DNA from: Flavobacteriaceae bacterium
Lineage (GTDB): Bacteria > Bacteroidota > Bacteroidia > Flavobacteriales > Flavobacteriaceae
DNA length: 32,000 bases
Direction of reading: 5' to 3'
Assembly: GCA_965224465.1 (NCBI GenBank)
Contig: OZ245049.1
Coordinates: 4,950,001 to 4,982,000 of the forward strand
Both the position numbers and the translations under genes were made by a program. This document shows positions 9,039 through 32,000 of the stretch, piece after piece (position 1 is the first letter of the stretch; every line of letters begins with the position of its first letter). The notes under the pieces are model-generated. The model was not told the origin of the DNA, did not search any database, and saw nothing but the letters and a program-made list of their open reading frames with translations.

Positions 9039-11366
9039 ATGAAACATATAGTTCGCAACGTTTTTAGGATTTTAATGATGTTATTTTTAGCTGTCTCTTG
9101 TACAAAACCAACAAAAGTTTTTGTAGAAAGTGACCTGAAAATCATTCCAAAACCGGTCTCTTTAGTCTTAAATAAGGGAGTGTTTGAATTTAATAAAAAC
9201 ACCGTTTTTGTAGTAAATAATGATGAGCAACACGAAATTGCTGCTGCATTGACTAAAAAATTGAAAGCGGCTGCTGGATTGGATGTTAACATAATATCGT
9301 CCCCTGTAAATACTAATTTTATTGCATTTGTAAAGGATGCGTCTTTGGCTACAGAGGGCTATACTTTAAGTGTATCTTCTTCTAGTATCACCATTAAAGC
9401 AAAGACAAACGCTGGGTTTATATACGGATTGGAAACCATACGTCAATTATTACCTACAGCTATTGAAAGCAATACGCTGGTTAGTGATGCGCAATGGGTG
9501 ATTCCTGCTGTAGAAATTAAGGATAAACCTCGCTTTGAATGGAGAGGGTTGATGTTGGATCTTTCGCGTCATTTTTTCGGAAAATCGTATTTGAAGAAAA
9601 CGATTGATGCGCTAGCAATGCATAAAATGAATGTACTACACTTGCATTTAGTGGATGACCAAGGGTGGAGAATAGAAATCAAAAAGTATCCTAAATTAAC
9701 AAGTATTGGTGCTTGGCGTGTAGATCAAGAAGATGCACCTTGGAATGGTAGAGAAGCGGTAACAGCGGATCAAAAAGGAACCTATGGAGGGTTTTTGACT
9801 CAGAAAGATTTGAAAGAAATTGTGTTGTATGCCCAACTTAAGAACGTAGAGATTATTCCAGAAATAGAAATGCCAGCCCATGTGTCTTCTGCCATTGCTG
9901 CATATCCTGAACTGTCTTGTTTTGACACTAAAATAGGCGTGCCTTCTGGTGGATTGTGGCCCATTACTGATATTTATTGTGCAGGAAAAGAGCATACGTT
10001 CGAATTTTTAGAAAATGTATTGTTAGAAGTGATGGATATTTTTCCTTCTAAATATATCCATATTGGTGGGGATGAAGCCACCAAAACCAATTGGAAAAAA
10101 TGTCCGCATTGTAAAAAACGTATGAAAACGGAAGGGCTTGCCAATGCAGAAGAATTACAAAGCTATTTTATCAAGCGTATAGAGAAATTTATCAAATCAA
10201 AAGGAAAGAAACTCATAGGTTGGGATGAGATTTTAGAAGGTGGATTGGCGCCAGACGCAACGGTGATGAGCTGGAGAGGTGTCAAAGGTGGCTTGGAAGC
10301 GGCTAAACATGGCAATGATGTGGTGATGACTCCTGGAAGTCATTGTTATTTTGACCATTACCAAGGACCTAGAGATAATGAGCCACAAGCATGGGGAGGC
10401 TATACACCTTTAAGTAAAGTGTATACTTTTGATCCAGTGGTTGATGGGATGACAGCAGAAGAAGCCAACCATGTACTAGGAGGTCAAGCAAATTTATGGG
10501 CTGAGTTTGTACCTACAGCTTCCCAGTCTGAATATATGATTTATCCACGTATTGCTGCATTGGCAGAAACTTTATGGAGTCCTAAAGCATCCCGGAATTG
10601 GGGCGATTTTTCTAAGCGCATCCCAGCAATGTTTGAACGCTATGAATATCTAGGAATCAATTATGCCAAAAGTGTGTATTTGATTACGGCTGCTACTAAA
10701 ATGAATTTAGAAACCAACCAAGTAGAAGTTTCCTTAAAAAACGAGTTTCTAGATGCTGATATTCGGTATAATTTGGATGGTTTAGCAATTACTGAAAATG
10801 CGGTCAAATACGCAACACCTGTCCTGTTGACAAAAACAACAACAATACATGCTTCTCTATTTAAAAATAACAAACCTGTAGGATTGGTGTTTGAGAAAAC
10901 GATCAATTTTCACAAGGCTGTTGGTAAAAAAGTGAATTATATCCAAAAGTATAGCGATCAATACAAAGGAGCTGCAGCTGTTGGTTTGGTGAATGTACTC
11001 AGAGGGTCTAAGGATTTTCACGATGGTCAATGGCAAGGTTGGATTGGAAATGATATGGAGGTTGTGATCGCTACAAAAGGGATAGATTTTGAAACAATAA
11101 CTGTTGGTTCTATGGAAGATCAAGGTTCTGGGATATATTTTCCAAGCCAGATTACGGTACTTGTTTCAGACGATGGTGTAGATTTTAAACAAGTTGCTCA
11201 AATAGACAGACCTTTTGCTAAAAATGCCAATGCTGCATTGCATAATTTTGAAATTCCTGTAGGCGTTCAACATACTAATTTTTTGAAAGTGATAGCGAAA
11301 AATTTAGGAAAAGCTCCAAACGGTGGCGATACTTGGTTATTTGTAGATGAAATTTTAATAAATTAA
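9039..11366 (+). CDS. GH20 beta-N-acetylhexosaminidase with C-terminal F5/8 type C (discoidin/CBM32-like) domain, paralog A
   Basis: Lipoprotein signal FLAVSC. GH20 motifs: RFEWRGLMLDLSRHF, MNVLHLHLVDDQGWRIEIKKYP, IPEIEMPAHV, HIGGDE. The C-terminal ~150 aa look discoidin-like (FHDGQWQGW ... WLFVDEILIN). Confidence 0.92.
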   Translation: MKHIVRNVFRILMMLFLAVSCTKPTKVFVESDLKIIPKPVSLVLNKGVFEFNKNTVFVVNNDEQHEIAAALTKKLKAAAGLDVNIISSPVNTNFIAFVKDASLATEGYTLSVSSSSITIKAKTNAGFIYGLETIRQLLPTAIESNTLVSDAQWVIPAVEIKDKPRFEWRGLMLDLSRHFFGKSYLKKTIDALAMHKMNVLHLHLVDDQGWRIEIKKYPKLTSIGAWRVDQEDAPWNGREAVTADQKGTYGGFLTQKDLKEIVLYAQLKNVEIIPEIEMPAHVSSAIAAYPELSCFDTKIGVPSGGLWPITDIYCAGKEHTFEFLENVLLEVMDIFPSKYIHIGGDEATKTNWKKCPHCKKRMKTEGLANAEELQSYFIKRIEKFIKSKGKKLIGWDEILEGGLAPDATVMSWRGVKGGLEAAKHGNDVVMTPGSHCYFDHYQGPRDNEPQAWGGYTPLSKVYTFDPVVDGMTAEEANHVLGGQANLWAEFVPTASQSEYMIYPRIAALAETLWSPKASRNWGDFSKRIPAMFERYEYLGINYAKSVYLITAATKMNLETNQVEVSLKNEFLDADIRYNLDGLAITENAVKYATPVLLTKTTTIHASLFKNNKPVGLVFEKTINFHKAVGKKVNYIQKYSDQYKGAAAVGLVNVLRGSKDFHDGQWQGWIGNDMEVVIATKGIDFETITVGSMEDQGSGIYFPSQITVLVSDDGVDFKQVAQIDRPFAKNANAALHNFEIPVGVQHTNFLKVIAKNLGKAPNGGDTWLFVDEILIN

Positions 11367-11377
11367 TACGGTGTAAA

Positions 11378-13699
11378 ATGACTTATTTTAAATATATACT
11401 ATGTGTTTTTTTTAGTATTGCATTGCTTTCTTGTCGTACAAAAACAGCAAAGGTTTTTACAGACGAGGATATTAAAATTATTCCAAAACCAGTTTCAGCT
11501 GTTTTAAAAAAAGGAGTATTTGAATTTGATGAAAATACAAGCATTACCGTCTTAAACCCACTGGCTAATGAGGCTGTTATTCTTTTGAGTAAAAAACTAA
11601 AAGTAGCCGCAGGTATTGAAGTAATTATTAAAGATATCGAAGGAAAGAATAGCGATAAAATTATTTTTAAAACCGACAGCTCTTTGACAAAAGAAGGCTA
11701 TGAATTGGATGTAGATCATGGGCTGATCACTATAAAAGCCATTAGTAAACAAGGCTTTTTATATGGAGTACAAAGTTTATTACAACTACTTCCTGTTCAG
11801 ATTGAAAGTTTAAAGGAACTAAGGGATATCGACTGGATTGTTCCTAATATAGCAATTAAAGATCAACCGCGTTTTAAATGGCGTGGATTGATGTTAGATG
11901 TTTCTCGTCATTTTTTTAAGGTTGATTATATAAAACAGGTGATAGATGGACTGTCCAAACACAAAATGAATGTGTTGCATTTACATTTAGTAGATAGCCA
12001 AGGATGGAGAATTGAAATTAAAAAGTATCCCAAATTAACATCTGTTGGTGCTTTTAGGTTAGACTCGGAGAATAAGCAATTGAAAGATATTAATGGAAAA
12101 GTCGAGGGCTATGAGCAAACGCAAGGAGGGTTTTATACCCAAGAGGATATCAAGGATATTGTAGCGTATGCCACCTTAAAAGGGATTGAGGTAATTCCAG
12201 AAATTGAGATGCCAGCGCATGTTGGAAGTGCTGTGGCTGCGTATCCAAGCTTGAGCTGTGGTAGGTATTTAAATGATATTCCAGCCTCTGATTGGGAAAA
12301 CCCTGGGATGTATTGTGCAGGAAAAGAAGCCACTTTTGAGTTTTTAGAAAATGTACTGTTGGAAGTGATGCCTTTGTTTCCTTCTAAATATGTACATATT
12401 GGAGGAGATGAAGCAGGAAAAGATACCTGGAGAAAATGTAAAGACTGTCAAAAACGTATTATAAACGAAAAATTAAAAAACGAAGACGAATTACAGAGTT
12501 ATTTTATCAAACGCATGGATAAATTTTTAACATCGAAAGGGAAAACCTTGATCGGTTGGGACGAAATTTTGGAAGGTGGATTGGCAAAAGATGCTACAGT
12601 GATGAGTTGGCGTGGTGTTGAAGGTGGTTTGGAAGCTACAAAACATGGGAATGATGTGGTGATGACACCTGGAAGTCACTGTTATTTTGACCATTATCAA
12701 GGGCCTCAATCCGAAGAACCATTGGCTTGGGGTGGTTTTACTACCTTGAGTAAAGTGTATGAATTTGATCCTATAGTGGAAGGCATGTCGCCAGAGGAAG
12801 CTGCACATGTTTTAGGAGGACAAGCAAATTTATGGTCAGAATATATTCCTACAGAATCTCATTCGCAATACATGATGTTTCCTAGGTTAGCCGCAATGTC
12901 CGAGGTGCTGTGGACTCCTAAAGAATCACTTTCGTGGGACGATTTTTCCCGACGTTTATTTTCATTATTAAAGCGCTATGATCTTTTGGGAATCAATTAT
13001 GCGAAAAGTGCTTTTTTAGTGACCTATGACACAAAAATAACATCGGAACACAAAGAATTGGAAATTAGTTTGCAAAACGAATTTACAGGAACTGATATTC
13101 GATATACATTGGATGGTAGTCCTGTGACAGCAGAGAGTGTTTCATATACGAAACCTTTTTTGATCCAAAAAACGTGTCATATCAATGCTTCTGTTTTTGA
13201 GAATAGTACGGCTGTAGGAAAGTTACTGAGTCAGTCTTTTATCTATCACAAAGCAGTAGGGAAAACACTAGAGTACCTTACGGATTATAACGATAGTTAT
13301 AAAGGTGTTGGCGCTTATACATTGGTAAATACCATTAGGGGGAGTACAAATTTTCACGATGGTCAATGGCAAGCTTGGTTAGATACAGACATGGAATTAA
13401 TCATTGATTTAGAAACGGAAACAGAGGTAGGTAAAGTAACTGTTGGTGCGATGGAAAATCAAATTCCAGGTATTTTTTATCCTTGCAGTTTTAAGGTGTT
13501 TATTTCTGATGATGGCATACACTTTAAGGAGGTTGGAAGTTTAAAAAGAGACTTTGTGAAAAATGAAATACCGGTTCTTAAAGATTTTGAAATTGTATTT
13601 AAAACTGAAAAAACGAGTTTTGTAAAAGTAATCGCCGAAGGTTATAAAAAAGATCATGGTGGTGTATTTATTTTTATTGATGAGGTTTTAATCAATTAG
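11378..13699 (+). CDS. GH20 beta-N-acetylhexosaminidase with C-terminal F5/8 type C domain, paralog B
   Basis: Same architecture and motifs as the upstream gene: RFKWRGLMLDVSRHF, HLHLVDSQGWRIEIKKYP, IPEIEMPAHV, HIGGDE, ending FIFIDEVLIN. Collinear with paralog A over the full length. Confidence 0.92.
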   Translation: MTYFKYILCVFFSIALLSCRTKTAKVFTDEDIKIIPKPVSAVLKKGVFEFDENTSITVLNPLANEAVILLSKKLKVAAGIEVIIKDIEGKNSDKIIFKTDSSLTKEGYELDVDHGLITIKAISKQGFLYGVQSLLQLLPVQIESLKELRDIDWIVPNIAIKDQPRFKWRGLMLDVSRHFFKVDYIKQVIDGLSKHKMNVLHLHLVDSQGWRIEIKKYPKLTSVGAFRLDSENKQLKDINGKVEGYEQTQGGFYTQEDIKDIVAYATLKGIEVIPEIEMPAHVGSAVAAYPSLSCGRYLNDIPASDWENPGMYCAGKEATFEFLENVLLEVMPLFPSKYVHIGGDEAGKDTWRKCKDCQKRIINEKLKNEDELQSYFIKRMDKFLTSKGKTLIGWDEILEGGLAKDATVMSWRGVEGGLEATKHGNDVVMTPGSHCYFDHYQGPQSEEPLAWGGFTTLSKVYEFDPIVEGMSPEEAAHVLGGQANLWSEYIPTESHSQYMMFPRLAAMSEVLWTPKESLSWDDFSRRLFSLLKRYDLLGINYAKSAFLVTYDTKITSEHKELEISLQNEFTGTDIRYTLDGSPVTAESVSYTKPFLIQKTCHINASVFENSTAVGKLLSQSFIYHKAVGKTLEYLTDYNDSYKGVGAYTLVNTIRGSTNFHDGQWQAWLDTDMELIIDLETETEVGKVTVGAMENQIPGIFYPCSFKVFISDDGIHFKEVGSLKRDFVKNEIPVLKDFEIVFKTEKTSFVKVIAEGYKKDHGGVFIFIDEVLIN

Positions 13700-19824: not shown

Positions 19825-21003
19825 ATGAACAAACAATTGTATTTTGTATGTGTGTGGCTATTTTCAGTAGTAGCATTAGTTGCTCAAGAGCCAGAAACAC
19901 ATGTAGTATTTAAAAATCAACCTATAAATTTTAATGGAGATAAAGGAAGTGATCAAGGCGTAGTACGTTTACAATCAGGTAGACTTATTTATAAAAAAGT
20001 GACCATGCCTACTTTTAGAAAAGGTACCGATGTATGGGTAAATTTGACGCTGCGTTCCAATGGGGATCGATGGGATAAGTCTGGATCTTGTTTTGTAATT
20101 ACAGACCCAGATCAAATTTCAATTCTAAAGGTTTCGGAAGGGAATGCTACGTTTCCTAAAGCGGCGATTGTAGATACTAAATTTAATGGGGTTTTAGCAA
20201 CAGACACCTACACTCCAGCCTTGGAAATTATGCGTTTTATGACGCCTTTTGGTGTGGGACATTACAGTAGCGATAAAGGAAAACATCGCAAGCCAGTATA
20301 CATACCTGTTTGGGAAAAAGAAGTGAAATGGACACATGATATTTCTGATTTGGTACGTGTGGTAAGTGGTGAATTCTATGTGGGAGTTTGGATCGATTCA
20401 TGGACTCCAGAAGGCTATGCTGTAGATTTGAGTTTTACCTATTCAAACCGCCCTAAAAAGAACCTAAAAGTAATGCCATTACTAAATAATGTTCCCTATG
20501 TAAACGGACAAGGGATTCCCGACTTTTTTGCACGTACCGATGTAGATTACAGTTTTGAATTGCCTAAAAATGCCAAGAATGTAACACTAAATTACATCAC
20601 TACAGGACATGGAGGTCATGAAGGTGGAGATGAGTTTATCAAAATTAAAAACAGTGTTTATTTTGACCAGAAATTAGTTATTGATACCATTCCTTGGCGA
20701 GATGATTGTGCGTCTTTTAGACGATTTAATCCTACCTCTGGCGTGTGGCTGCAAAAAGATACGGCTTCTTATATTGATATGAAAGCCATGAAGTATATGA
20801 AGAAAGAAATTGAAGAACGCATTGCGTCTTCTGACCTTTCTAGATCAAACTGGTGCCCAGGATCTTCTGTAAAACCAATAGTAGCCAAGCTTGGGTATTT
20901 AAAGAAAGGAACACATCAGTTGAAAATTAGTATTCCTGCTACAGAAGCTGTGGCTGATAAGTTAAATCATTGGTTGGTGTCGGCGTATTTAACCTACGAA
21001 TAG
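19825..21003 (+). CDS. PNGase F-like peptide-N4-(N-acetyl-beta-glucosaminyl)asparagine amidase
   Basis: Sec signal peptide. By eye it aligns to Elizabethkingia PNGase F at GDRWDKSGSCFV (vs CDEWDRYANVYV, catalytic Asp region), TTGHGGHEGGDEF (vs GWGH..GCAEW, catalytic Glu region) and NWCPGSSVKP (vs GWCPGMAVP). Otherwise strongly divergent, with a longer N-terminal part. Confidence 0.72.
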   Translation: MNKQLYFVCVWLFSVVALVAQEPETHVVFKNQPINFNGDKGSDQGVVRLQSGRLIYKKVTMPTFRKGTDVWVNLTLRSNGDRWDKSGSCFVITDPDQISILKVSEGNATFPKAAIVDTKFNGVLATDTYTPALEIMRFMTPFGVGHYSSDKGKHRKPVYIPVWEKEVKWTHDISDLVRVVSGEFYVGVWIDSWTPEGYAVDLSFTYSNRPKKNLKVMPLLNNVPYVNGQGIPDFFARTDVDYSFELPKNAKNVTLNYITTGHGGHEGGDEFIKIKNSVYFDQKLVIDTIPWRDDCASFRRFNPTSGVWLQKDTASYIDMKAMKYMKKEIEERIASSDLSRSNWCPGSSVKPIVAKLGYLKKGTHQLKISIPATEAVADKLNHWLVSAYLTYE

Positions 21004-21034: not shown

Positions 21035-21072
21035 AAAGACAGTTTTTCCAGTTTGGAGGACTGTCTTTTTTT
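21035..21072 (+). terminator. Rho-independent terminator closing the 13-gene array
   Basis: Stem AAAGACAGT (21035..21043) pairs with ACTGTCTTT (21060..21068). There is an inner TCCA/TGGA stem and a GTT loop. A run of T follows through 21072, 32 nt after the PNGase F-like stop codon. Confidence 0.7.
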
Positions 21073-21223
21073 ATGTAAAAAAATAAAGATGTTTCCATTC
21101 GTACTCGTTCTAAGCGCATTGGACGAAATAGTGCTGTTTTATCTTCTAGTTTTAGTTAATTTTAAAGGTGCTTCGCAAACGTTATCGTTGCGGGTGAATC
21201 CATTATACCAAGTACATTTCTAG

Positions 21224-21362
21224 GTGACGGTTTAGAGATGTAATTATTTTTTGTTTTAGTTAGGTAAAAAATGGATGGATTGCCATTGCTATCGTTCTGT
21301 TTTTTAACAATGCTAGAACGTAAAATAAACTATTTATATCAGTCATTTTGGATTGTAATAGG
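21224..21362. repeat. Conserved intergenic element, copy A (full length), ending 32 nt before the GH3 start codon
   Basis: The 5' block GTGACGGTTTAGAGATGTAATTAT matches copy C at 22/24 positions. The 3' core GCTAGAACGTAAAATAAACTATTTATATC (21312..21340) is identical to copy C over 29 nt, and is followed by a TTTTGGATTGTAATAG tail. Confidence 0.8.
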
Positions 21363-21393
21363 TATTCATATAGAATCTTAAAATTTAATTTAA

Positions 21394-24048
21394 ATGAGTT
21401 TACGGAATTGTTTTTATAGTGTTTTATTCCTTTTTTTTAGTCTTAATCTGCAGAGTCAAGAAATCAGTAGCTATCCTTATCAAAATGCAAAGCTATCTAT
21501 TGATGAACGCGTAGACGATTTATTAAGCCGCATGTCTTTGGAGGAAAAAGTCCGCCAAATGGACATGTACAAAGGATGGGGATTTAAGGATGGTGAATCA
21601 TTTTCTGCCTCAAAAACAGTCAAACAAACAGGAAGTTTGGGGATAGGTGCGATTCATGATTTATACCCAAGATCCGCTAAAATGATCAACGATTTACAAA
21701 GCGAAGTTATTAAAAGTAACCGTTGGGGGATTCCTGCATTAATTATGTGCGAAATGCTACATGGATATTTAGATGAAGGTAGTACAGCTTTCCCTATGAA
21801 TATTGGTCTTGGAGCTACTTGGGATGTGGATATTATGAAAAAAGTAGGCGCTGTAATTGGTGCAGAGGCTAGGGCTCATGGAGTTCATTATGGTTTAGGG
21901 CCTGTGTTGGGAATAGGTAGAGAACCTCGTTGGGGCAGGGTTGCTGAAACCTTTGGTGAAGACACGTATTTGGCAAGTGAAATAGGCTTGGCAATGATAC
22001 TTGGAATGCAAGGCGATACGCTGGCTTCTAATCACTCTATTATTGCAGAACCAAAACATTTTGCTGTTCATAGTGCTCCGCAAGCGGGAGGGAATTCCTC
22101 TCCTGTAATTGTAGGAGAACGGACTGCGCGTCAAGATTTTTTGCCAGTGTTTCAAAAAGCATATATGAAAGGAGGTGCTTTGGGTGCGATGTGTGCCTAT
22201 TCAGAGTTAGATGGCGTGCCATGTGCGTCCAATAAGTGGTTGTTGACCGATGTATTGCGTAAAGAATGGGGGTTTAAGGGAATTGTAGTGTCTGATTTAG
22301 GAGCGATTAAATACATTCAAACGACACATTACACGGCGGATTCACCCAAGGAAAGCATCAAGCAATCCGTAAGTGCTGGTGTAGATATGCAGTTTTATGA
22401 CTTTACCAATCAGTTTTGGCAACAGACAATTATTGATTTGGTTAGAGATAAAGAAATGGATGTAAAATATGTAAATCGTGCGGCTGGTGGGGTATTGAGA
22501 TTAAAGTTCTTAGTAGGTTTATTCGAAAATCCTTATACAGAAAAAGGCTTGATTGCAACACGTTTTCATTCAATAGAAAATCAACAAGTGGCTTTAGAGG
22601 CGGCTCAGAAATCTATCATTTTACTTAAAAATGAAGCAGAGATACTTCCTTTGTCAAAAAATATAAAAACCATTGCTGTGATTGGACCTAATGCCAATGC
22701 ATCAAGATTAGGAGGGTATTCGGTTAAAAATAAAGTTGCGATTACGGTATTGGAAGGGATTCGAAAAATTGTTGGAAAAAGAACAACGGTACTCTATGAA
22801 GAAGGAGTACCTCTAGTTGTAAAAGGACAAATTATCGGTTCAGAAAATTTACGAACTCCAGATAGATTAGAACACGGATTGAAAGGGGAATATTTTAACA
22901 ATCGTAATTTGGAGGGAACTCCTGCATTGACACGAATAGACAAACAATTGAATTTTGATTGGCCATGGTCGCCAGGTATTGGCGTAAATGATGATGAATT
23001 TTCTATACGATGGACAGGGTTTTTAAATGCTAAAACCTCTTTTAAAGGCTGGCTAGGTCTAAGCTCAGATGATGGTATTAGAATGTGGATTGATGATGTG
23101 TTAGTAATCGATAATTGGAAAAAAGGCGGGACTAATATTGTGACGTATCCAATGGAAGTTAAGGCGAAAAAAAACTATAAAGTCCGCATCGAAATGTGGG
23201 AAGGAGGTTGGGGAGCGCGTGCACATTTTAGATGGAATTTGGAAAAAGTTAATTTTCAGCCAGCTATTGCTATTGCGAAAAAAGCAGACGTTGCTATTGT
23301 TGTACTTGGAGAATCTAGGGAATTGGTAGAGGAAAATAGAGATGTTGCCACTTTAAAATTACACGGAAAGCAAGAAGATTTAATCAAAGCGATTCAGAAA
23401 ACAGGAACTCCTGTTATATGTGTGTTATTAAATGGTCGTCCTTTAGCTATCAATTGGGTTCAGAACAATGTGCCTGCAATTATAGAGGCATGGTTTCCTG
23501 GTGAAAAAGGAGGGGATGCTGTTGCGGATGTTTTATTTGGGAATTATAACCCAGCGGGGAGATTGCCCATCACAGTTCCTAAATCTGTAGGACAGTTGCC
23601 TATTTATTACAATCAAAAACCTACGGCTATTCATCGTTATGTAGCCGAAAGTGAATTGCCTTTGTATCCTTTTGGATTTGGATTGAGTTATACGTCATTT
23701 CGCTATGGTGCTGTTAAAATGAGCTCAAAAATCATTAAAATAAATGAGTCTTTAAAAATTACAGTGGACGTTACCAATACAGGCGATGTTGATGGTGATG
23801 AGGTGGTGCAGTTGTATATTAATGATGTGTACAGCAGTGTTACAAGTCCTAGAATTTCCTTAAAAGATTTTAAAAGAGTACATATTAAAAAAGGAGAAAC
23901 AAAAACAGTAGTATTTGAGTTGACACCAGAAAAACTAGCCATTTGGAACTTAAAAATGAATAATGTAGTGGAGCCAGGAGACTTTGAAGTGATGGTAGGC
24001 CCTAATTCAGTAGACGTTTCAACCTCGGTATTTAAAGTGATAAAATAA
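21394..24048 (+). CDS. GH3 beta-glycosidase (BglX-like) with inserted PA14 domain
   Basis: Sec signal peptide. GH3 motifs: PRWGRVAETFGED, KHFAVHS, GFKGIVVSDLGA (nucleophile Asp). PA14 insertion: GLKGEYFNNRNLEG ... FSIRWTGFL ... DDGIRMWIDD. C-terminal Fn3-like domain. Confidence 0.9.
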   Translation: MSLRNCFYSVLFLFFSLNLQSQEISSYPYQNAKLSIDERVDDLLSRMSLEEKVRQMDMYKGWGFKDGESFSASKTVKQTGSLGIGAIHDLYPRSAKMINDLQSEVIKSNRWGIPALIMCEMLHGYLDEGSTAFPMNIGLGATWDVDIMKKVGAVIGAEARAHGVHYGLGPVLGIGREPRWGRVAETFGEDTYLASEIGLAMILGMQGDTLASNHSIIAEPKHFAVHSAPQAGGNSSPVIVGERTARQDFLPVFQKAYMKGGALGAMCAYSELDGVPCASNKWLLTDVLRKEWGFKGIVVSDLGAIKYIQTTHYTADSPKESIKQSVSAGVDMQFYDFTNQFWQQTIIDLVRDKEMDVKYVNRAAGGVLRLKFLVGLFENPYTEKGLIATRFHSIENQQVALEAAQKSIILLKNEAEILPLSKNIKTIAVIGPNANASRLGGYSVKNKVAITVLEGIRKIVGKRTTVLYEEGVPLVVKGQIIGSENLRTPDRLEHGLKGEYFNNRNLEGTPALTRIDKQLNFDWPWSPGIGVNDDEFSIRWTGFLNAKTSFKGWLGLSSDDGIRMWIDDVLVIDNWKKGGTNIVTYPMEVKAKKNYKVRIEMWEGGWGARAHFRWNLEKVNFQPAIAIAKKADVAIVVLGESRELVEENRDVATLKLHGKQEDLIKAIQKTGTPVICVLLNGRPLAINWVQNNVPAIIEAWFPGEKGGDAVADVLFGNYNPAGRLPITVPKSVGQLPIYYNQKPTAIHRYVAESELPLYPFGFGLSYTSFRYGAVKMSSKIIKINESLKITVDVTNTGDVDGDEVVQLYINDVYSSVTSPRISLKDFKRVHIKKGETKTVVFELTPEKLAIWNLKMNNVVEPGDFEVMVGPNSVDVSTSVFKVIK

Positions 24049-24072
24049 ACCATAACCTATAAAACAAGTACT

Positions 24073-26304
24073 ATGTATTTTAATAAAGGATTGCGAAGTG
24101 TATTCTTTTTACTATTGATTAGTGTGATGTCTTGTACATCAGATAACACATTAAAACTAGTTGAAAACGGAAGGTCTAATTACGAAATTGTTGTGCTCAG
24201 TACAGCTTCAAAGAGTATTCAGAATTCTGCAGAAGTATTGCAAAATTATATGTATAAAATTACAGCCGTAAAGATCCCCATTTGTAATGTACCAAGTAAA
24301 ACCAAAGGGAGTATTTCTGTTGGACTAGGAAATCTTAAAAAAGATGAAATACAGTTCTTAACTGCTCAGGGGAATCTAATGATTAAAGGAGGTTCAGATG
24401 CGGCGGTTTCTAATGCTGTCTACGAGTTTTTAGAACGTTATTTAGCATGTAAATTTTATGCGCCTGATGCCGAAGTAGTTCCTCTGTCAAAAACAATTAC
24501 TATTGCTAAAAACATAAACTACACATACAGTCCTAAAATTACGACACGAACGGTGCATTCACGCTTGTTTTATGAAAATCATGAGTTTGCAGCAAAGCTA
24601 AAAGTAACTACAGAGGGGTTTCCTTTTTATGTTCCTAAAACAGGAGTACATACCTTTCAACGTTTTTTGCCAGAAGAAACCTATTACGCAAGCCATCCAG
24701 AATATTTTGCATTGAGAGAAGGGAAACGCTATCCAACGCAATTGTGTTTGACAAACCCTGCTGTAGTCGTAATTGTTAAAAATGCCGTACATAAATTGTT
24801 TGAAGAGTATCCAGAAGCATCTGTGATTTCCGTGAGTCAAAATGATAATCAACAGTTTTGTACTTGTGATGCCTGTTCAGCAATTAATAAGGAAGAAGAA
24901 AGTGAGGCAGGATCCTTGATTTATTTTGTCAATAAAATAGCCGCTGAATTTCCAAACAAAACAATTTCTACTCTGGCCTATCAATACACGAGAAAAGCAC
25001 CGAAAGTGAAACCTCTAAAAAATGTATTGATTACGTTGTGTTCTATAGAATGTGATAGAAGTGGCCCTATTTCTGAGAAATGCACCGATTTTGCCGATGA
25101 TATTAGAGCATGGAACAGGATAACCAATACTATTAGAATTTGGGATTATACCACGCAGTTTACCAATTTTTTAGCGCCATTCCCTAACATGCATACCTTA
25201 AAACCAAACATTGAGTTTTTTAGCGCCAATAATGCCAAATGGATATTTGAGCAACACAGTAATAATCCAAGTGAATTGTTTGAATTACGTTCTTATATTA
25301 CCGCTAAATTATTATGGGATCCTAGTTTAAATTACAATGATTTGTTGACGGAGTTTACAAACGGTTATTATGGAGATGCGGGTGTGTATGTAAAAAAATA
25401 TGTAGATTTAATAAGTCTAAAGATTCAAGAAACTCCTGAGTTTTTCTTGTTTTTATACGGGGATCCTTCTCAAGGATTTGAATCGTTTTTAAGCCCGAAA
25501 TTACTGTCAATATATGATGGTTTTTTTAAGAAAGCTATGGAAGCTGTTAAAAATGATGCTGTCTTGGTGAAGCGAATAAAAGAAGCGAGAATAGGTGTTG
25601 ATTATGCTATTTTAGAAGCTTCTAAAAAAGGATTGACGCAACACTTGAGTTTGGTAATACCTGGGGATGGTGTAAAAAAAGTAATCAACCCAAAAGTGGT
25701 GGCTAGGTTGGAATCTTTTGTCGCAACGTGTAAAGCGGCAAACATTACAGTAATGAATGAAATGGGTTTTACTGTGCAAGAATATTACAACAATTATAAG
25801 ATGGCTTTAGATGTGGCGGTACTCCCAAACATAGCTAAAGGAAAAACGGTGACCTTGCTTACAAAACCTAAGAAATATGCCAAAGAAGATCCACAAGTAT
25901 TGACCGATGGTGCCTTGGGAGGGAATAGTTTTTATGCCAATTGGTTAGGGTTTGAAGGGAATAACTTAGAGGTAGTGATTGATTTGGGAGCATTAACTGA
26001 AATATCAACCATATCTACGGCATTTTTACAAGTGACCAATCACGTGGTGTTTTTTCCAGAGAATGTAACCTATTTTGCTTCGAATGATGCTAATGTGTTT
26101 CGTAAATTGGCATTCCTTGAGAATGATGTTCCATTGGTGAAAAAGAGTAAAATAAATGATATTAAATATTTTAACGCAACATTTCCAAAAACAACTGCTC
26201 GGTACATTAAAGTGCTAGGGAAAAACATAAAGAAAGCTCCTTATTGGCATCATGCAGCAGGGTTGCCAGCTTGGATTTTTGCAGATGAGGTGATTGTAAA
26301 TTAA
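24073..26304 (+). CDS. DUF4838-type putative glycoside hydrolase with C-terminal F5/8 type C (discoidin) domain
   Basis: Lipoprotein signal LLLISVMSC. The N-terminal region resembles GH20b/GH67N-like zincin-fold modules. Central region carries Cys cluster FCTCDAC (nt 24859..24876). The C-terminus is discoidin-like and ends WIFADEVIVN, like the two GH20s. The family assignment is from memory of DUF4838 architecture. Confidence 0.6.
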   Translation: MYFNKGLRSVFFLLLISVMSCTSDNTLKLVENGRSNYEIVVLSTASKSIQNSAEVLQNYMYKITAVKIPICNVPSKTKGSISVGLGNLKKDEIQFLTAQGNLMIKGGSDAAVSNAVYEFLERYLACKFYAPDAEVVPLSKTITIAKNINYTYSPKITTRTVHSRLFYENHEFAAKLKVTTEGFPFYVPKTGVHTFQRFLPEETYYASHPEYFALREGKRYPTQLCLTNPAVVVIVKNAVHKLFEEYPEASVISVSQNDNQQFCTCDACSAINKEEESEAGSLIYFVNKIAAEFPNKTISTLAYQYTRKAPKVKPLKNVLITLCSIECDRSGPISEKCTDFADDIRAWNRITNTIRIWDYTTQFTNFLAPFPNMHTLKPNIEFFSANNAKWIFEQHSNNPSELFELRSYITAKLLWDPSLNYNDLLTEFTNGYYGDAGVYVKKYVDLISLKIQETPEFFLFLYGDPSQGFESFLSPKLLSIYDGFFKKAMEAVKNDAVLVKRIKEARIGVDYAILEASKKGLTQHLSLVIPGDGVKKVINPKVVARLESFVATCKAANITVMNEMGFTVQEYYNNYKMALDVAVLPNIAKGKTVTLLTKPKKYAKEDPQVLTDGALGGNSFYANWLGFEGNNLEVVIDLGALTEISTISTAFLQVTNHVVFFPENVTYFASNDANVFRKLAFLENDVPLVKKSKINDIKYFNATFPKTTARYIKVLGKNIKKAPYWHHAAGLPAWIFADEVIVN

Positions 26305-26319
26305 GCGTTAATTTTAAAG

Positions 26320-27192
26320 ATGAATCAAAAAATAATGAAAAAATATATTTCTATTACGATCTTAATCATAGGTTTTTTTCAATTTTCAATGGCACAAAAT
26401 TATGAGTTAATGACTTATAATATTCGTTATAGTAACAGCCATGATGGAGAAAACAAATGGGAAAAACGAAAAGAGTATCTCTGCAATCAAATTTCTTATT
26501 ACAATCCTGATGTTTTTTGTATTCAAGAAGGCTTGCATTCTCAAGTAATCTATTTAGAAAACTATTTTAGTGAGTATAAATATGTAGGAGTTGGACGAGA
26601 TGATGGAAAAACAAAAGGGGAGTACTGTGCCATTTTTTACAATGCTACTGTTTTTGAAGTACTTGAAAGTGATACCTTTTGGCTATCTAAAACTCCAGAA
26701 AAAATATCGGTGGGTTGGGATGCAGCATTGGAACGTATTTGTACCTATGCCTTGTTAAAAGACAAAAAAACGGGGCTTAAATTTTATGTGTTCAATACCC
26801 ATTTTGACCATATAGGAACTAAAGCACGTATTAAAAGTGCCAAGCTAATCGCTAAAAAAATTGAAGGTATAAATAAAGAGCATGTTCCTTTTTTTATAAT
26901 GGGTGATTTTAATTTGTTGCCAGAAAGTAAACCGATTCATTATTTATCCACACAATTTAATGATGCTAAGTTTACAAGCATTCACAAGCCTTTTGGTCCC
27001 GAAGGAACTTTTAATGCCTTTCAATTTGAAAAACCAGTTATGGATCGGATTGACTATATATTTACTTCCAAAGGCAATGTAATTGTACATAAATTTGCAA
27101 TAATTAGCGATTCAAAAAATTGCAAATATCCTTCTGATCATTTGCCTGTTATGATTCATACCTCCTTTTATACCAAATACATTTCGAAGTAA
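26320..27192 (+). CDS. Secreted endonuclease/exonuclease/phosphatase (EEP) family phosphoesterase
   Basis: Signal peptide (the start could instead be the ATG at 26335). EEP motifs: LMTYNIRY near the N-terminus, CIQEG, FNTHFDH, MGDFN and C-terminal SDHLPV. Confidence 0.85.
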   Translation: MNQKIMKKYISITILIIGFFQFSMAQNYELMTYNIRYSNSHDGENKWEKRKEYLCNQISYYNPDVFCIQEGLHSQVIYLENYFSEYKYVGVGRDDGKTKGEYCAIFYNATVFEVLESDTFWLSKTPEKISVGWDAALERICTYALLKDKKTGLKFYVFNTHFDHIGTKARIKSAKLIAKKIEGINKEHVPFFIMGDFNLLPESKPIHYLSTQFNDAKFTSIHKPFGPEGTFNAFQFEKPVMDRIDYIFTSKGNVIVHKFAIISDSKNCKYPSDHLPVMIHTSFYTKYISK

Positions 27193-27280
27193 CAGTTTAG
27201 AAACGGAATTATTTTCTGATTCTAAACAACGCTAGAACCTAAAACAAACTATTTATATCTGTTATTTGGGATTGTAATAG
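27193..27280. repeat. Conserved intergenic element, copy B (internally deleted), starting immediately after the EEP stop codon
   Basis: CAGTTTAGAAACGGAATTAT matches copy C at 18/20 positions. The core GCTAGAACCTAAAACAAACTATTTATATC (27231..27259) has 2 mismatches to copies A and C. About 45-50 nt of the middle section is missing. It contains the inverted repeat GTTTAGA (27195..27201) / TCTAAAC (27221..27227). Confidence 0.75.
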
Positions 27281-27455
27281 ATATGAGTAGTGTGTTTTTT
27301 CCATAATAGCAATTACGATTTACCTATAGTCATGCTGCTTGTTTTTCTTGATTTAAAAATAAACGAAATAATAAAGGTTTTTATTACGCTTATTAATCTA
27401 AAAGCTGTAGCTTTGAAAGGACTTAAGACAATAATTAAACAGAGATAATTAATTT

Positions 27456-29045
27456 ATGAGATTTAACTATTTATTAGTGAGTTGCTTGTGTGTTTTGGCA
27501 ATGATTGGTTGTACAGAGAAGACAGCCGTAAAAAAGCAACCCAATATTATTTTTATCATGAGTGATGATCATGCTTATCAAGCTATCAGTGCCTATGGAC
27601 ATGGATTGAATAAGACACCTAATATTGATAGAATTGCTACAGAAGGCGCTATTTTTAATAGAGGTTTTGTTACCAATTCTATTTGTGCGCCGAGTAGGGC
27701 TGTGATGTTGACAGGGAAACACAGTCATATCAATGGGAAAGTAGATAATATTTTACCGTTTAATTGGGGACAAGATAATTTTGCAAAAGGGCTTCAGAAG
27801 GTTGGTTATGAAACAGCGCTTATTGGGAAAATACATTTAAAAGGGCTTCCTCAAGGATTTAATTATTCCAATGTACTGCCAGGGCAGGGCGAATATTACA
27901 ATCCCGATTTTATAGAAAATGGTGTAAAAAAAACCTATCATGGTTATGTAACCTCCATAACTACGGATATCGCTTTGGATTGGTTGCAAAACAAACGAAA
28001 ACAAGATGCTCCTTTTTTACTATTATATCATCAAAAAGCACCGCATAGAACATGGATGCCAGAAGCTAAATATTTAGACCTGTTGACAAAGGTGAATTTT
28101 ACACCTCCAGCAAATTTCTTTGATGACTATAAAGGACGTCCAGCGGCAGCGCAGCACGAAATGGGAATCTATAAACATTTGGATGTGGTCTATGATTTAA
28201 AAATGTTAGACAAAGAAGGGACTTTAAAAACTAAATATAGAAAGTGGTTTCAAGGGCAATATGACCGTATGGATGAGGCACAGAAAAAATTATGGGATGC
28301 ACATTATGATCCTATTATAGCCAAATTTAAAAAAGAAAAACCAACAGGTAAGGAATTGGCTTTATGGAAATTTAATCGTTATATGCGAGATTATTTAAGT
28401 ACTATACAATCGGTAGATGATGGTGTAGGGGAGATTTTAGATTATTTAGAAACCAATGGATTGACAGAGAATACCATTGTGGTTTACACTTCAGATCAAG
28501 GGTTTTATCTAGGAGAGCATGGTTGGTTTGACAAGCGTTTTATGTACGAAGAATCTTTTAGAACACCTATTTTAATGAGATATCCAAAAGAAATTAAACC
28601 AGGAACCGTTGTGAATAATTTGATTCAGAATCTAGATTTTGCACCTACGTTTTTGGATTATGCAGGAGCGCCTATTGCTAAGGATATTCAAGGAATGTCT
28701 TTCCGTAAGTTACTTAGTGGAGAACAGACCCAATGGCGTGACGCTATATATTATAGCTATTACGAATATCCGGGAGAACATAATGTTCAGCGTCATTACG
28801 GGGTAAGAACAGATCGTTATAAACTCATTCATTTTTACTATAAAGATGATTATTGGGAATTATACGACTTAGAAAAAGATCCTACAGAGATGAACAACCT
28901 TTATAATAATGCTGCGTATGTGACTGTTCAGGCGGAGTTACACAAAAGACTAATAGAACTCCGTGTACAATATGGAGATAGTAAGGAATTAAATGAACAA
29001 AATCTCACTAGTTTTTTAAAAGTAAAAGGCTTGGAGCGGGAGTAG
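27456..29045 (+). CDS. S1-family formylglycine-dependent sulfatase; a carbohydrate sulfatase is likely, possibly GlcNAc-6-O-sulfatase-like
   Basis: Lipoprotein signal LAMIGC. Motifs: PNIIFIMSDDH, formylglycine motif CAPSRAVMLTG, and SDQGFYLGEHGWFDKR. The substrate assignment comes only from context. Confidence 0.85.
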   Translation: MRFNYLLVSCLCVLAMIGCTEKTAVKKQPNIIFIMSDDHAYQAISAYGHGLNKTPNIDRIATEGAIFNRGFVTNSICAPSRAVMLTGKHSHINGKVDNILPFNWGQDNFAKGLQKVGYETALIGKIHLKGLPQGFNYSNVLPGQGEYYNPDFIENGVKKTYHGYVTSITTDIALDWLQNKRKQDAPFLLLYHQKAPHRTWMPEAKYLDLLTKVNFTPPANFFDDYKGRPAAAQHEMGIYKHLDVVYDLKMLDKEGTLKTKYRKWFQGQYDRMDEAQKKLWDAHYDPIIAKFKKEKPTGKELALWKFNRYMRDYLSTIQSVDDGVGEILDYLETNGLTENTIVVYTSDQGFYLGEHGWFDKRFMYEESFRTPILMRYPKEIKPGTVVNNLIQNLDFAPTFLDYAGAPIAKDIQGMSFRKLLSGEQTQWRDAIYYSYYEYPGEHNVQRHYGVRTDRYKLIHFYYKDDYWELYDLEKDPTEMNNLYNNAAYVTVQAELHKRLIELRVQYGDSKELNEQNLTSFLKVKGLERE

Positions 29046-29282
29046 TATCATTTTAATCCCACTAGTGGGTTTAATTCACCGATGCTTGTATCTAAATGAT
29101 TAAGGTTTTTTTTCATACCTCGTGGGCTTTCCCCAAGGTTATTGAATTTTTTAAATAAAAGGGGTATTTCTAAATGAATAGTTTAGGATTGCCTCTTTTT
29201 TTGTGTATCAAAAAAGCGGTATTTATGAGTTGAATTCAATCATCAATAAATGAGTACTGAATAATACCTACTAAATTTACAA

Positions 29283-29413
29283 GTGACGGTTTAGAAATGG
29301 AATTATATTTTAGCTAGGTAATAAATCTAAGTATAGCCCCTCTACCGTTTTAATTTTCAGTAACGCTAGAACGTAAAATAAACTATTTATATCGGTTATT
29401 TTGGATTTTAATG
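29283..29413. repeat. Conserved intergenic element, copy C (full length), ~340 nt upstream of the SusC-like gene
   Basis: 5' block GTGACGGTTTAGAAATGGAATTAT. 29-nt core at 29365..29393 identical to copy A. Weaker similarity to copy A extends ~20-40 nt further upstream. Confidence 0.8.
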
Positions 29414-29751
29414 GATACACTTTGTTAAATGTGTTTTTGAGCGTGTTAATTTTTTAAGTATTGTGATGAAATTGCATATTTCCTTTCGGTATGATATTAC
29501 TGTTAAATATGTTTTTTTACTGTGTATTTGTGGTGTTTATCCTTGTATGTTTATGTTATAGTTAGTAAAAAAGACTTGTTGTTGAATAAAAAAAACAGAG
29601 AGGATTCTTTTTAGGAATGTTTTTGTGAAATGTCTTTAGTGTGTGGAATCTATTCCTACAACGGTGTAGTACAAACATTGGTCGAAAAAATGAAAACGTT
29701 TTCGTGAATTTAACGTACTTTTAAGATGATATTAACTCAAACAATTTTTTA

Positions 29752-32000
29752 ATGATGCAAAATGTATTAAGGCTTTTTGTGATCTGTCTACTAGGAATAA
29801 CTAGTTTACAAGCGCAATCAGTAAAAGGAACAATTACAGATGCTGTTGATGGAAGCCCACTTCCTGGAGTGAATGTAATTGTAAAAGGAACGACAAATGG
29901 TGTTTCAACAGATTTTGATGGTAACTATATCATCGAATTATCAGAAGGACAACGTGTATTACAATTTTCGTATATGGGCTATACGACAAAAAATGTAACT
30001 GTAAATGGACGAAGAGTGCTCAATGTTAAGTTAGCTCAAAGTGCAGAGTCGTTAAACGAAGTCGTTGTAACTGCTTTGGGGATTAAAAGAGAAAAAAGAT
30101 CCTTAGGATACTCTGTTTCTGAAGTAAAAGGAGCATCGGTTTCTTTAGCAAAAGAATCAAATGTTGTAAATTCATTAGCAGGTAAAGTTGCAGGGGTCGT
30201 AATTACCCAGTCAGCCTCTGGACCTGCAGGAGGAACAAGAGTCATCATCAGAGGGAATAACTCTATTACAGGGAACAATCAGCCATTGTATGTAGTAGAT
30301 GGTGTTCCTATAGATAATTCTGGTATTGGTTCTGCAAACGGTTCAAATACGGGTGAGTATAGTCGTTCAGATTTGGGAACTGGTATTTCGGATATTAATC
30401 CTGACGATATCGAATCTATGTCTGTTTTAAAAGGACCAAACGCAGCAGCTTTGTATGGTTCAAGAGCAAGTAATGGTGTAATAATTATTACAACAAAAAA
30501 AGGCGGTGAACAAAAAGGATTGGGAGTTTCTTTAACTTCAAGTACAACTTTTAACTCTCCTCTAGTTTTACCTCAATATCAAAATCAATATGGTCAAGGT
30601 AAAGATGGCAATTTTGCTACTGATTTAACAGAATTAAAATCAAATGGTTCTTGGGGGCCTAAATTTGATGGATCTTCACAATTGTATTATAATGGAGAAA
30701 ATAGACCTTATGTTGCACAACCAAATAACGTTGAGAGCTTTTTTCAAACAGGTGTGAGTTTGGTAAATACAATTGCTGTTAGTAAAAGTACTACAGATTC
30801 ATCTTTAAGATTTTCTTATTCTAATTCAGATTTAGGATCTATTTTACCTAATTCTAAAGTGAAAAGAAATAATTTTAATTTAAGAGGTTTCTCAAAAATT
30901 ACAGATAAGTTTTCTTTAGATGCTAAAGTAACTTATTTTTTACAAGATGCTAACAACAGAGCTACACAAGGAACCGAAGGTATTATGGCGTATGTATATG
31001 GTATGCCTAGAAATATTGTAACAGAGGATTTAAAAAAATACCAAGATCTAGACAATGGTTATGGTATTATTGCTCCAAGTTCTAGTGGGGGTAATCCTTA
31101 TGCTATTTTGTACAATGATTTGAATGAAGATGACAGAACTCGTTTTACAGGTTTTGCAAAAGCACAATATGATTTTAGTGATAAATTACAAGCATTTATG
31201 AGAATAGGTACTGATGCAGTTTCACATAACACAAAAAGTGTGACAGCTGTAGGGCATCATTTTTACCCAGATGGAAGAATTAGTTATTCCAAAAATGATA
31301 GAAGAGAGACCAACTATGATTTCTTATTTATGTATAATGATGATTTAAGTGATGCTTTTAATTTGTCTGCAAATTTAGGAGGAAATTCCTTACATTCTAC
31401 ATATATAGGATCCTCTATAAGAGGTGAGGACTTTAAAATTCCAGGTAAGTATTTTATTTCAAATACAGATGGAGAGAAAATAAGAGTTTCACAGTCTGAT
31501 TTGATCGAGAAAAAAGTAAACTCTTTATATGGTTCTACTTCATTATCGTACAAAAACATGGCATATTTAGATTTAACAGGTCGTAATGATTGGTCGTCTG
31601 CTTTAGCGGCAGAGAACCGTTCTTATTTTTATAAATCTGCAAGTTTAAGTTTATTAGTAAGTAAAATGGTTGATTTATCTGCTGCAGGAGTTGATTTTGC
31701 AAAAATCAGATTTAGTTTTGCAAATGTTGGTAACGATACAGGAGCACAACAGATAGTGAATTTGTATAGCGTTGCTTCAAATGGTTATTTAGGAAATGTT
31801 ACTGTGTCTAGACCTAATATTAAGTTTAGTAAAAGTTTAAGGCCAGAAGATGTTACATCTACAGAAGTTGGTTTTGAGTTAAAGGCATTTAAAAATAGAT
31901 TTTTTGCAGATTTCACTTATTACTCCATAGCGTCAAAGGATTTAATTTTTGATGTACCTGTAGATGCTGCAACTAAATATTCGCATTTTAGAGAAAACGT
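29752..32000 (+). CDS. SusC/RagA-family TonB-dependent outer-membrane transporter, 3'-truncated by the window edge
   Basis: Not in the ORF track because it has no stop inside the window. My own translation from the ATG at 29752: MMQNVLRLFVICLLGITSLQAQSVKGTITDAVDGSPLPGVNVIVKGTTNGVSTDFDGNYIIEL...LNEVVVTALGIKREKRSLGYSVSEV. This shows a signal peptide, a carboxypeptidase-regulatory-like domain and a SusC-type TonB box/plug. The frame stays open to nt 32000. There is no STN-type N-terminal signalling extension. Confidence 0.9.
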   Translation, partial: MMQNVLRLFVICLLGITSLQAQSVKGTITDAVDGSPLPGVNVIVKGTTNGVSTDFDGNYIIELSEGQRVLQFSYMGYTTKNVTVNGRRVLNVKLAQSAESLNEVVVTALGIKREKRSLGYSVSEVKGASVSLAKESNVVNSLAGKVAGVVITQSASGPAGGTRVIIRGNNSITGNNQPLYVVDGVPIDNSGIGSANGSNTGEYSRSDLGTGISDINPDDIESMSVLKGPNAAALYGSRASNGVIIITTKKGGEQKGLGVSLTSSTTFNSPLVLPQYQNQYGQGKDGNFATDLTELKSNGSWGPKFDGSSQLYYNGENRPYVAQPNNVESFFQTGVSLVNTIAVSKSTTDSSLRFSYSNSDLGSILPNSKVKRNNFNLRGFSKITDKFSLDAKVTYFLQDANNRATQGTEGIMAYVYGMPRNIVTEDLKKYQDLDNGYGIIAPSSSGGNPYAILYNDLNEDDRTRFTGFAKAQYDFSDKLQAFMRIGTDAVSHNTKSVTAVGHHFYPDGRISYSKNDRRETNYDFLFMYNDDLSDAFNLSANLGGNSLHSTYIGSSIRGEDFKIPGKYFISNTDGEKIRVSQSDLIEKKVNSLYGSTSLSYKNMAYLDLTGRNDWSSALAAENRSYFYKSASLSLLVSKMVDLSAAGVDFAKIRFSFANVGNDTGAQQIVNLYSVASNGYLGNVTVSRPNIKFSKSLRPEDVTSTEVGFELKAFKNRFFADFTYYSIASKDLIFDVPVDAATKYSHFREN

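Follow-up and report, generated by a model that had tools for sequence, protein, structure and literature searches.

A dispersed palindromic repeat family of marine Flavobacteriaceae occupies three spacers of an N-glycan utilisation locus

Why does the same non-coding sequence stand ahead of three successive transcription units in a bacterial glycan locus? We analysed 32,000 nt of a Flavobacteriaceae genome (GenBank assembly GCA_965224465.1, contig OZ245049.1, positions 4,950,001–4,982,000; hereafter the window), an N-glycan utilisation locus in which all genes lie on the + strand and no regulator is encoded. An annotation made from the letters alone (the sequence-only reading) had noticed an element before the GH3, sulfatase and SusC genes, and had considered it either a cis-regulatory module or leader RNA shared by these units or an intergenic repeat. 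We find that the three sequences, here termed copies A, B and C, belong to a palindromic repeat family that had not been catalogued before in marine Flavobacteriaceae. It is non-coding, has a unit of about 163 bp and probably behaves like a non-autonomous mobile element of the kind represented by miniature inverted-repeat transposable elements (MITEs), enterobacterial repetitive intergenic consensus (ERIC) units and Correia elements. A role as a glycan-specific regulator is not supported. The conserved 'module' heading three units of a polysaccharide utilisation locus (PUL) is a dispersed repeat, which removes a tempting false lead, and the real conserved upstream signals of the locus adjoin it.

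Extent and copies of the repeat

The recurrence noticed earlier was confirmed. The 29-nt core (GCTAGAACGTAAAATAAACTATTTATATC) occurs exactly at 21312–21340 and 29365–29393 and with two mismatches at 27231–27259, against an expectation of zero from 100 shuffles, and the 5′ block recurs three times with at most three mismatches (again none expected by shuffling). Alignments recovered the common tail motif in A, B and C as well as the loss of the middle from copy B, where 46 alignment columns are gone. All three copies have the + orientation of every gene in the window, and none of the 18 window proteins carries a transcription factor domain. The limits given for the element were too short, however: the repeat begins about 21 nt further upstream (TTATACC...) and ends a few nucleotides later (..TAATnGrTA).

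To set the limits we used a covariance model built from four copies, which scored copy A at 171 bits (E = 8e-35), copy B at 88.9 bits and copy C at 143.7 bits and found no fourth copy in the window (Table 1). Delimited in this way, the unit is about 163 nt long (159–165 nt in full-length copies), contains 27–30% G+C and is sharply bounded on both sides. Copy A is intact, and stands 135 nt past a terminator that follows the PNGase F gene. The distance from the repeat to the next start codon is 27 nt for A, 170 nt for B and 332 nt for C. The unit is non-coding, with stops in all six frames and no open reading frame (ORF) conserved across copies. A 36-aa ORF in copy A (21271–21381) was considered as a hidden peptide or toxin gene and rejected, its ATG being unique to that copy.

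Only three spacers in the window exceed 250 nt, and each holds one copy. The placement of the element in gaps stands with one amendment, as copy B overlaps the end of the preceding Exo_endo_phos ORF. The first 25 nt of the copy supply the last seven codons and the stop codon (YTKYISK*; tail 27169–27192). Orthologues of this protein are 279 aa long, compared with 290 aa here, and stop a few codons past the SDHLPV motif; copy B has rewritten the C terminus of the gene.

Table 1 Features of the N-glycan locus and copies of the repeat in other genomes
Feature	Position	Strand	Remarks
Upstream part of locus			SSF (sodium:solute symporter family) transporter, GH130, three GH92, two GH20, asparaginase-type amidase, mannose-6-phosphate isomerase, GH29 fucosidase
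PNGase F gene	19825–21003	+	
Terminator-like hairpin	21035–21068	+	Intrinsic type, 14-pair stem and T tail after PNGase F; outside the repeat, ends the upstream unit
Copy A	21203–21367	+	Intact, 165 nt; 5′ arm 21203–21264, apical part 21265–21306, 3′ arm 21307–21367
29-nt 'core' of copy A	21312–21340	+	Lies within the 3′ arm, its pairing partner being the 5′ block (GGTTTAGAGATGTAATTATTTTTTGTTTTAG)
GH3 gene	21394–24048	+	
DUF4838 gene	24073–26304	+	
Exo_endo_phos gene	26320–27192	+	
Copy B	27168–27286	+	46-nt internal deletion (inner 5′ arm and apical hairpin lost)
Sulfatase upstream block	27366–27428	+	63 nt, downstream of copy B; perfect −7 box TAGCTTTG at 27408–27415
Sulfatase gene	27456–29045	+	
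Copy C	29262–29420	+	Full-length, decayed: 5-nt and 1-nt deletions, several stem-breaking substitutions
SusC leader block	29631–29752	+	Downstream of copy C; palindrome CCTACAACGGTGTAG (29655–29669) and TTGGTCGAAAA
SusC gene	from 29752	+	
Copy in L001 (NORP129 genome)	5378–5542		In the gap that separates a 116-aa hypothetical gene from the stop codon of an amidotransferase-like gene in convergent orientation
Copy in L002/L011 (NORP167 genome)	L002 1484–1648		ahpC–ahpF spacer, antisense to the operon; divergent LysR (OxyR-like) gene adjoining
Copy in L010 (another assembly)			3′ arm lost; beside Porph_ging and CarboxypepD_reg genes; left flank common with P0127

Structure of the unit

The whole unit is a single long imperfect palindrome, its left and right halves being inverted repeats over the full length, with 52–57 matches per roughly 80 positions when one arm is aligned against the other. 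Its termini are inverted repeats, the 5′ end TTATACCAATTAAATTTCCAAGTGACGG matching the reverse complement of the 3′ end, ATATCAATTAAAACCCAAAATGACCG, and the pairing goes on along the unit from there. The 5′ block and the 29-nt core, which had appeared as separate conserved segments, are two opposite arms of one stem. The sequence-only reading had paired the 5′ block with a downstream segment, GTTTAGA/TCTAAAC in copy B. This pairing is present but secondary, a local structure formed because B lost its middle, and the main partner of the block is the core itself.

In the intact copies (copy A and those of L001 and L002, two loci from other genomes), the + strand is predicted to fold into a single rod of 55–61 pairs at −46 to −48 kcal/mol (z = −5.6 to −7.1); for copy A the values are −46.3 kcal/mol (z = −5.7) on the + strand and −20.0 kcal/mol on the − strand. 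Standard pairs fill 93.5% of cells in register, compared with at most 52% when the partner is slid by 1–3 columns, and at three pairs both partners have changed, as with TACATTT/TTGTAAT in A (and in B) versus TAAATTT/TTTTAAT elsewhere. The two other window copies have lost this fold. Because its inner 5′ arm and tip are deleted, copy B leaves the core unpaired and forms a local alternative hairpin, GTTTAGAA...TTCTAAAC, instead; in copy C the rod is gone, with z about 0 on both strands and four G-U against five A-C oppositions between the arms.

Copies elsewhere

A pattern scan with a relaxed core over one genome per species matched two loci, both in metagenome-assembled genomes (MAGs) of Flavobacteriaceae. 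The copies there (L001 and L002) are full-length, 85–92% identical to the window copies and located in unrelated settings (Table 1). Further copies in the source genome came to light when the element was translated and a protein collection was queried for the resulting spurious short ORFs (ORFlets). Six of those recovered (P0121, P0122, P0123, P0125, P0127 and P0128) lie on the same 5,241,564-bp contig as the window and none of them is encoded inside it, adding at least six loci and bringing the source genome to at least nine. This count is a lower bound, obtained by a route that is blind to all three window copies. The same search also returned the ORFlet of L002 and that of L010.

The copies vary in ways that go beyond point substitution. 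In P0125 and P0122 the 3′ end of one copy runs straight into the 5′ start of the next (…FWIVIG directly followed by IIPITFPSEDLEMELFFVLARQ…), a tandem head-to-tail arrangement. Apical deletions in copy B, P0127 and P0128 have three different endpoints. In P0127 and P0128 the endpoints, judged from peptide junctions, are bracketed by short direct repeats or by runs of T, which is what slippage across a hairpin should produce. Truncation has removed the 3′ arm of the L010 copy and the 5′ arm of one in L003, the orthologous locus of a relative.

Could the window copies be leftovers of segmental duplication or gene conversion inside the locus? They are clustered and on the same strand, and the locus does contain tandem paralogues, a GH20 pair (9039–13699, 75–79% identical). 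Beyond the sharp unit ends, however, the copies have no flanking sequence in common, and they recur at unrelated loci and in at least six other places of the source genome. Nor are they one another's nearest relatives: A is 77% identical to C and 87% identical to the L001 copy, and B and L002 have two diagnostic core substitutions (AACCTAAAACAAAC) in common. This pattern of identities and substitutions points to a family with subfamilies rather than to local duplication, which we regard as extremely improbable.

The family is narrow in distribution and belongs to a small group of marine Flavobacteriaceae. A HMMER search of 1.84 billion representatives with an ORFlet profile returned no ORFlets beyond those already known; scans of metagenome contigs with the core and with the 5′ arm gave no matches, and plasmid and phage collections held no match to the element. 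Two hits in viral contigs (L008 and L009) were rejected as chance matches, fitting the A+T-rich core alone and none of the flanking unit, and the other viral scan gave none.

Orthologous sites in relatives

We recovered the orthologous locus in relatives through the sulfatase (proteins 88% and 84% identical). Sites B (Exo_endo_phos–sulfatase) and C (sulfatase–SusC) lack the element in L003, L004 and L006, where the gene order is kept; the empty sites have diverged so far that no clean junction of insertion or excision can be read from them. Site A in L003 holds a 5′-truncated remnant of 74% identity, fused to the terminator T-run after PNGase F. In three sulfatase loci of more distant relatives the element was not found.

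Gene content also differs between these loci. At site A it switches, with GH3 (21394–24048) here and a ParE-type toxin and its antitoxin, on the minus strand, in the relative (L003 5620–6171; L004 8–559), so that the repeat marks a gene-content boundary. L004 additionally carries a GH97 gene between DUF4838 and Exo_endo_phos, which the window lacks. The 216 nt from the sulfatase stop codon to copy C (29046–29261) include a number of short hairpins and runs of T, such as CCCACTAGTGGG and AAGGTTTTTTTT. They have no counterpart among the fetched relatives, in which one clean terminator follows the sulfatase.

Nature of the repeat

Like a MITE, the repeat is small (within about 100–400 bp) and non-coding, ends in inverted repeats, is dispersed in several copies over one genome and is polymorphic for insertion between orthologous loci. 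The second suggestion of the sequence-only reading, a REP/MITE-like intergenic repeat (REP, repetitive extragenic palindrome), has gained support from the unrelated neighbours of the element, its opposite orientation in other genomes, its further loci in the source genome, the empty orthologous sites and the deleted or decayed copies. On this basis A, B and C are probably members of a mobile-type palindromic family. Such a family would spread in trans by means of a transposase encoded elsewhere in the genome, possibly with a 3-bp TAT or TTA duplication; its copies decay through slippage-type loss of the hairpin tip, truncation and point mutation.

Comparison with known systems favours the same assignment. 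A similar size, inverted repeats at the termini, long stem-loops, a division into two length classes and C-terminal fusions inside genes have been described in bacterial MITEs (PMC3184786, PMC2759123, PMC2649163), with Correia, ERIC, RUP and Nezha among the examples (PMC3184786). Correia repeat enclosed elements (CREEs) of Neisseria are palindromic non-coding spacer units of about 100–160 bp that occur in full-length and internally deleted classes and are mobile between strains (PMC2649163; PMC3184786). Our repeat similarly comprises 163-nt units and variants of about 119–133 nt and is polymorphic between relatives. It differs in that it occurs in another phylum with no sequence relationship established, is palindromic over its whole length rather than at 26-bp termini, and apparently has a far lower copy number. 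The ERIC or intergenic repeat unit (IRU, RU-1) and RU-2/RU-3 elements of Enterobacteriaceae are imperfect palindromes of 103–168 bp that form one long stem-loop in transcribed intergenic regions and are sometimes inserted in gene ends, adding coding sequence (PMC2759123; PMC3184786), as copy B does for Exo_endo_phos. Both termini of ERIC are flanked by TA (PMC3184786), whereas the flanks here are ambiguous (TAT or TTA), and sequence and host clade are unrelated. A literature search for MITEs or palindromic repeats of Flavobacteriaceae found nothing relevant.

These comparisons also suggest what an intact copy might do. Where CREEs are co-transcribed, they form hairpins open to cleavage or protection by RNase III, and promoters can arise at their ends (PMC2649163; PMC3184786). 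Transcribed in the + sense, an intact copy of the present repeat would put a duplex of about 55–60 bp into PUL transcripts. Such a duplex might serve as a substrate for RNase III, hold up exonucleases or protect RNA ends, processing and protection both being documented for Correia elements (PMC2649163). In this way copy A could have an incidental effect on the GH3 mRNA, of the kind that Correia and ERIC elements exert elsewhere among bacteria.

Several observations weigh against a mobile element. The flanks do not settle on one target duplication: TAT..TAT is found in four of five copies if the ends are taken as ACC...GA, and TTA..TTA in two of five if they are taken as TACC...GATA. Both overlap the palindrome, which may itself account for part of this. 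No transposase or full-length parent insertion sequence with matching ends was seen in about 230 kb of window and fetched loci. Copies outside the source genome appear to be few: each NORP MAG gave one exact-core match, and the roughly 200 kb of loci retrieved held no other copy. Conservation between genomes, at about 85%, spans the whole length rather than the termini alone. Finally, substitutions in the intact copies favour pairing on one strand. On the + strand the three copies contain 25 G-U against 5 A-C oppositions, in a DNA alignment that does not favour G-U, and among changes private to copy A, L001 and L002 the counts are about 10–11 and 2 (binomial p of about 0.02, post hoc and from a small sample of related copies). 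An overall A-to-G mutational bias was rejected as the source of this excess, the spectrum being roughly symmetric (A>G 7, T>C 6, C>T 5, G>A 2), so the asymmetry lies in where the changes fall. It hints at weak selection on the + single-stranded form, either RNA or transposition-intermediate DNA, rather than at purely neutral decay, and constitutes a lead, not a result.

Strand bias and single-stranded forms

The strand bias bears on two further explanations. According to the first, the unit is a functional strand-specific structured RNA, such as a small RNA family, an RNase III site, a 3′-end stabiliser or an operon insulator, perhaps domesticated from a mobile palindrome and selected where intact. 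The + rod is more stable than the − rod by 11–26 kcal/mol in all three intact copies, which, together with the G-U excess and the three pairs changed on both sides, would be expected of such an RNA. Copy A is intact while the copy at the same site in the relative is a truncated wreck, and most copies share the orientation of the gene upstream. The element, which the sequence-only reading could not match to any known RNA family, has no Rfam counterpart: Rfam at gathering thresholds gave nothing on it in the window, L001 or L002, nor in L001 at E values up to 10. (Weak Rfam matches at L001 5254–5385 were discarded, as they lie upstream of the element and far under gathering scores.) A perfect Bacteroidota −7 box is missing from every copy, and the rod is not followed by a U-tract terminator. 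The two diagnostic substitutions common to copy B and L002 disrupt pairs with no compensating change; the structure is dispensable at the many sites where deletion or truncation has struck a copy; and in L002 the copy runs antisense to its operon. The sample comprises three or four informative sequences related by descent. We consider a structured RNA of this type fairly unlikely.

A mixed form of this idea, in which the repeat is a mobile strand-specific RNA or single-stranded DNA hairpin whose intact copies are selected as RNase III-type processing or insulating sites between PUL units, we likewise hold to be doubtful. If it were true, the repeat would add a Correia-like post-transcriptional layer tuning neighbouring glycan operons, which our literature search did not find described for Flavobacteriia. 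Should the strand bias hold genome-wide, the family would be a convenient system in which to see operon expression of Bacteroidota shaped by a mobile RNA hairpin.

According to the second explanation, the unit moves or recombines as folded single-stranded DNA, as an IS200/IS605-type palindrome-associated transposable element (PATE), a REP doublet (REPIN) mobilised by a REP-associated tyrosine transposase (RAYT) or an attC-like site. Consistent with this, single-strand stability is biased by strand, copies occur head to tail in tandem, and TTA stands directly at the left end of four of five copies, where it could be a fixed target or cleavage motif rather than a duplication. IS200/IS605 ends, however, carry separate subterminal hairpins without end-to-end pairing, unlike the repeat, and no HUH or RAYT gene occurs in any fetched locus. 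An attC-like identity was rejected on reading the sequence, as the 3′ end has no R-box (GTTRRRY), and so was that of a terminator, as no U-tract lies past the rod. With REPs, bacterial interspersed mosaic elements (BIMEs) and REPINs the repeat has in common that it is an extragenic hairpin palindrome with possible tandem clusters and strand-specific single-strand folding. REPs, by contrast, are G+C-rich, 20–40 bp long and headed by GTAG or CGTC (PMC3733652), a tag that is absent from either end of this 163-bp, A+T-rich unit. Movement as folded single-stranded DNA is quite improbable in our judgement, and transposition of a MITE-like element remains our preferred account.

Regulatory signals in the locus

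If the repeat is a mobile-type element, what of its position at the head of three units? A shared cis-regulatory module or leader, possibly including an extracytoplasmic function (ECF) sigma promoter (AGAAC-N17-TATC), that co-regulates GH3, sulfatase and SusC was suggested by the presence of three co-oriented copies within 8.2 kb, upstream of all three transcription-unit heads in the window. Yet the element has unrelated neighbours, lies in either orientation and is absent from orthologous sites, three observations that the sequence-only reading had itself named as speaking against a regulatory role. The supposed ECF promoter is the 3′ arm of the hairpin and is equally conserved in L001, L002 and L003, where no co-oriented gene follows, including beside ahpCF and the amidotransferase gene. 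Sites B and C are empty in relatives that keep sulfatase, SusC and SusD; the distance to the start codon varies from copy to copy; and B and C are damaged. Co-regulation through the repeat is thus very improbable.

Regulators of PULs in Bacteroidota, including ECF sigma/anti-sigma pairs working with STN-containing SusC proteins, hybrid two-component systems, SusR and cis-antisense small RNAs such as DonS, act upstream of SusC. Copy C shares this position in the N-glycan locus. The likeness ends there: the window contains no regulator gene and specifically no ECF sigma or anti-sigma gene, its SusC has only the CarboxypepD_reg and Plug domains in Pfam and no STN domain, and the element is not PUL-specific. 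Unlike the cis-antisense RNAs, copy C has the sense orientation; it stands 332 nt ahead of SusC and upstream of the conserved SusC leader.

Promoter motifs are found beside the repeat. The sequence-only reading could not match the element to the Bacteroidota promoter consensus (−33 TTG, −7 TAnnTTTG), and a perfect −7 box is indeed absent from every window copy; one-mismatch boxes occur in the copies (TACATTTC, TCATTTTG) and are common in such A+T-rich DNA. Downstream of copy B, a conserved block ahead of the sulfatase contains a perfect box (TAGCTTTG) 48 nt before the start codon, and the box is also found at L003 8061. The block is 84% identical in L003, L004 and L005, all without copy B, and is likely to be the native sulfatase promoter. 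Downstream of copy C, the SusC leader block, with its CCTACAACGnTGTAG palindrome, has the order TTCCTACAACGnTGTAG...TTGGTCGAAAA...TACnTTTAAC...ATATTAACTCAAACAATT and is common to the window, L003, the second SusC of L006 and L014, the relatives having no repeat there. For the operator or leader of these N-glycan SusC genes it makes a stronger candidate than the repeat does. Both genes have, in these blocks, conserved upstream sequence of their own that is independent of the repeat.

GH3 is the one place where copy A might contribute to expression. PNGase F ends with a strong terminator-like hairpin, and from there to the GH3 start codon a perfect −7 box is lacking, so a promoter inside copy A is possible; this counts in favour of a regulatory role at this site.

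Other features of the locus

The tandem GH20 hexosaminidase paralogues (9039–11366 and 11378–13699), whose 75–79% DNA identity extends over long stretches, are an old tandem duplication inside the locus. Outside the window, L002 carries a Flavo-1 RNA (Rfam RF01705; 61 bits against a gathering score of 42) at 3732–3808, corresponding to about 11732–11808 of L011. The LysR-type gene adjoining ahpC has its 3′ end about 340 nt away, with the RNA on the downstream side; in sequence this RNA is unrelated to the repeat.

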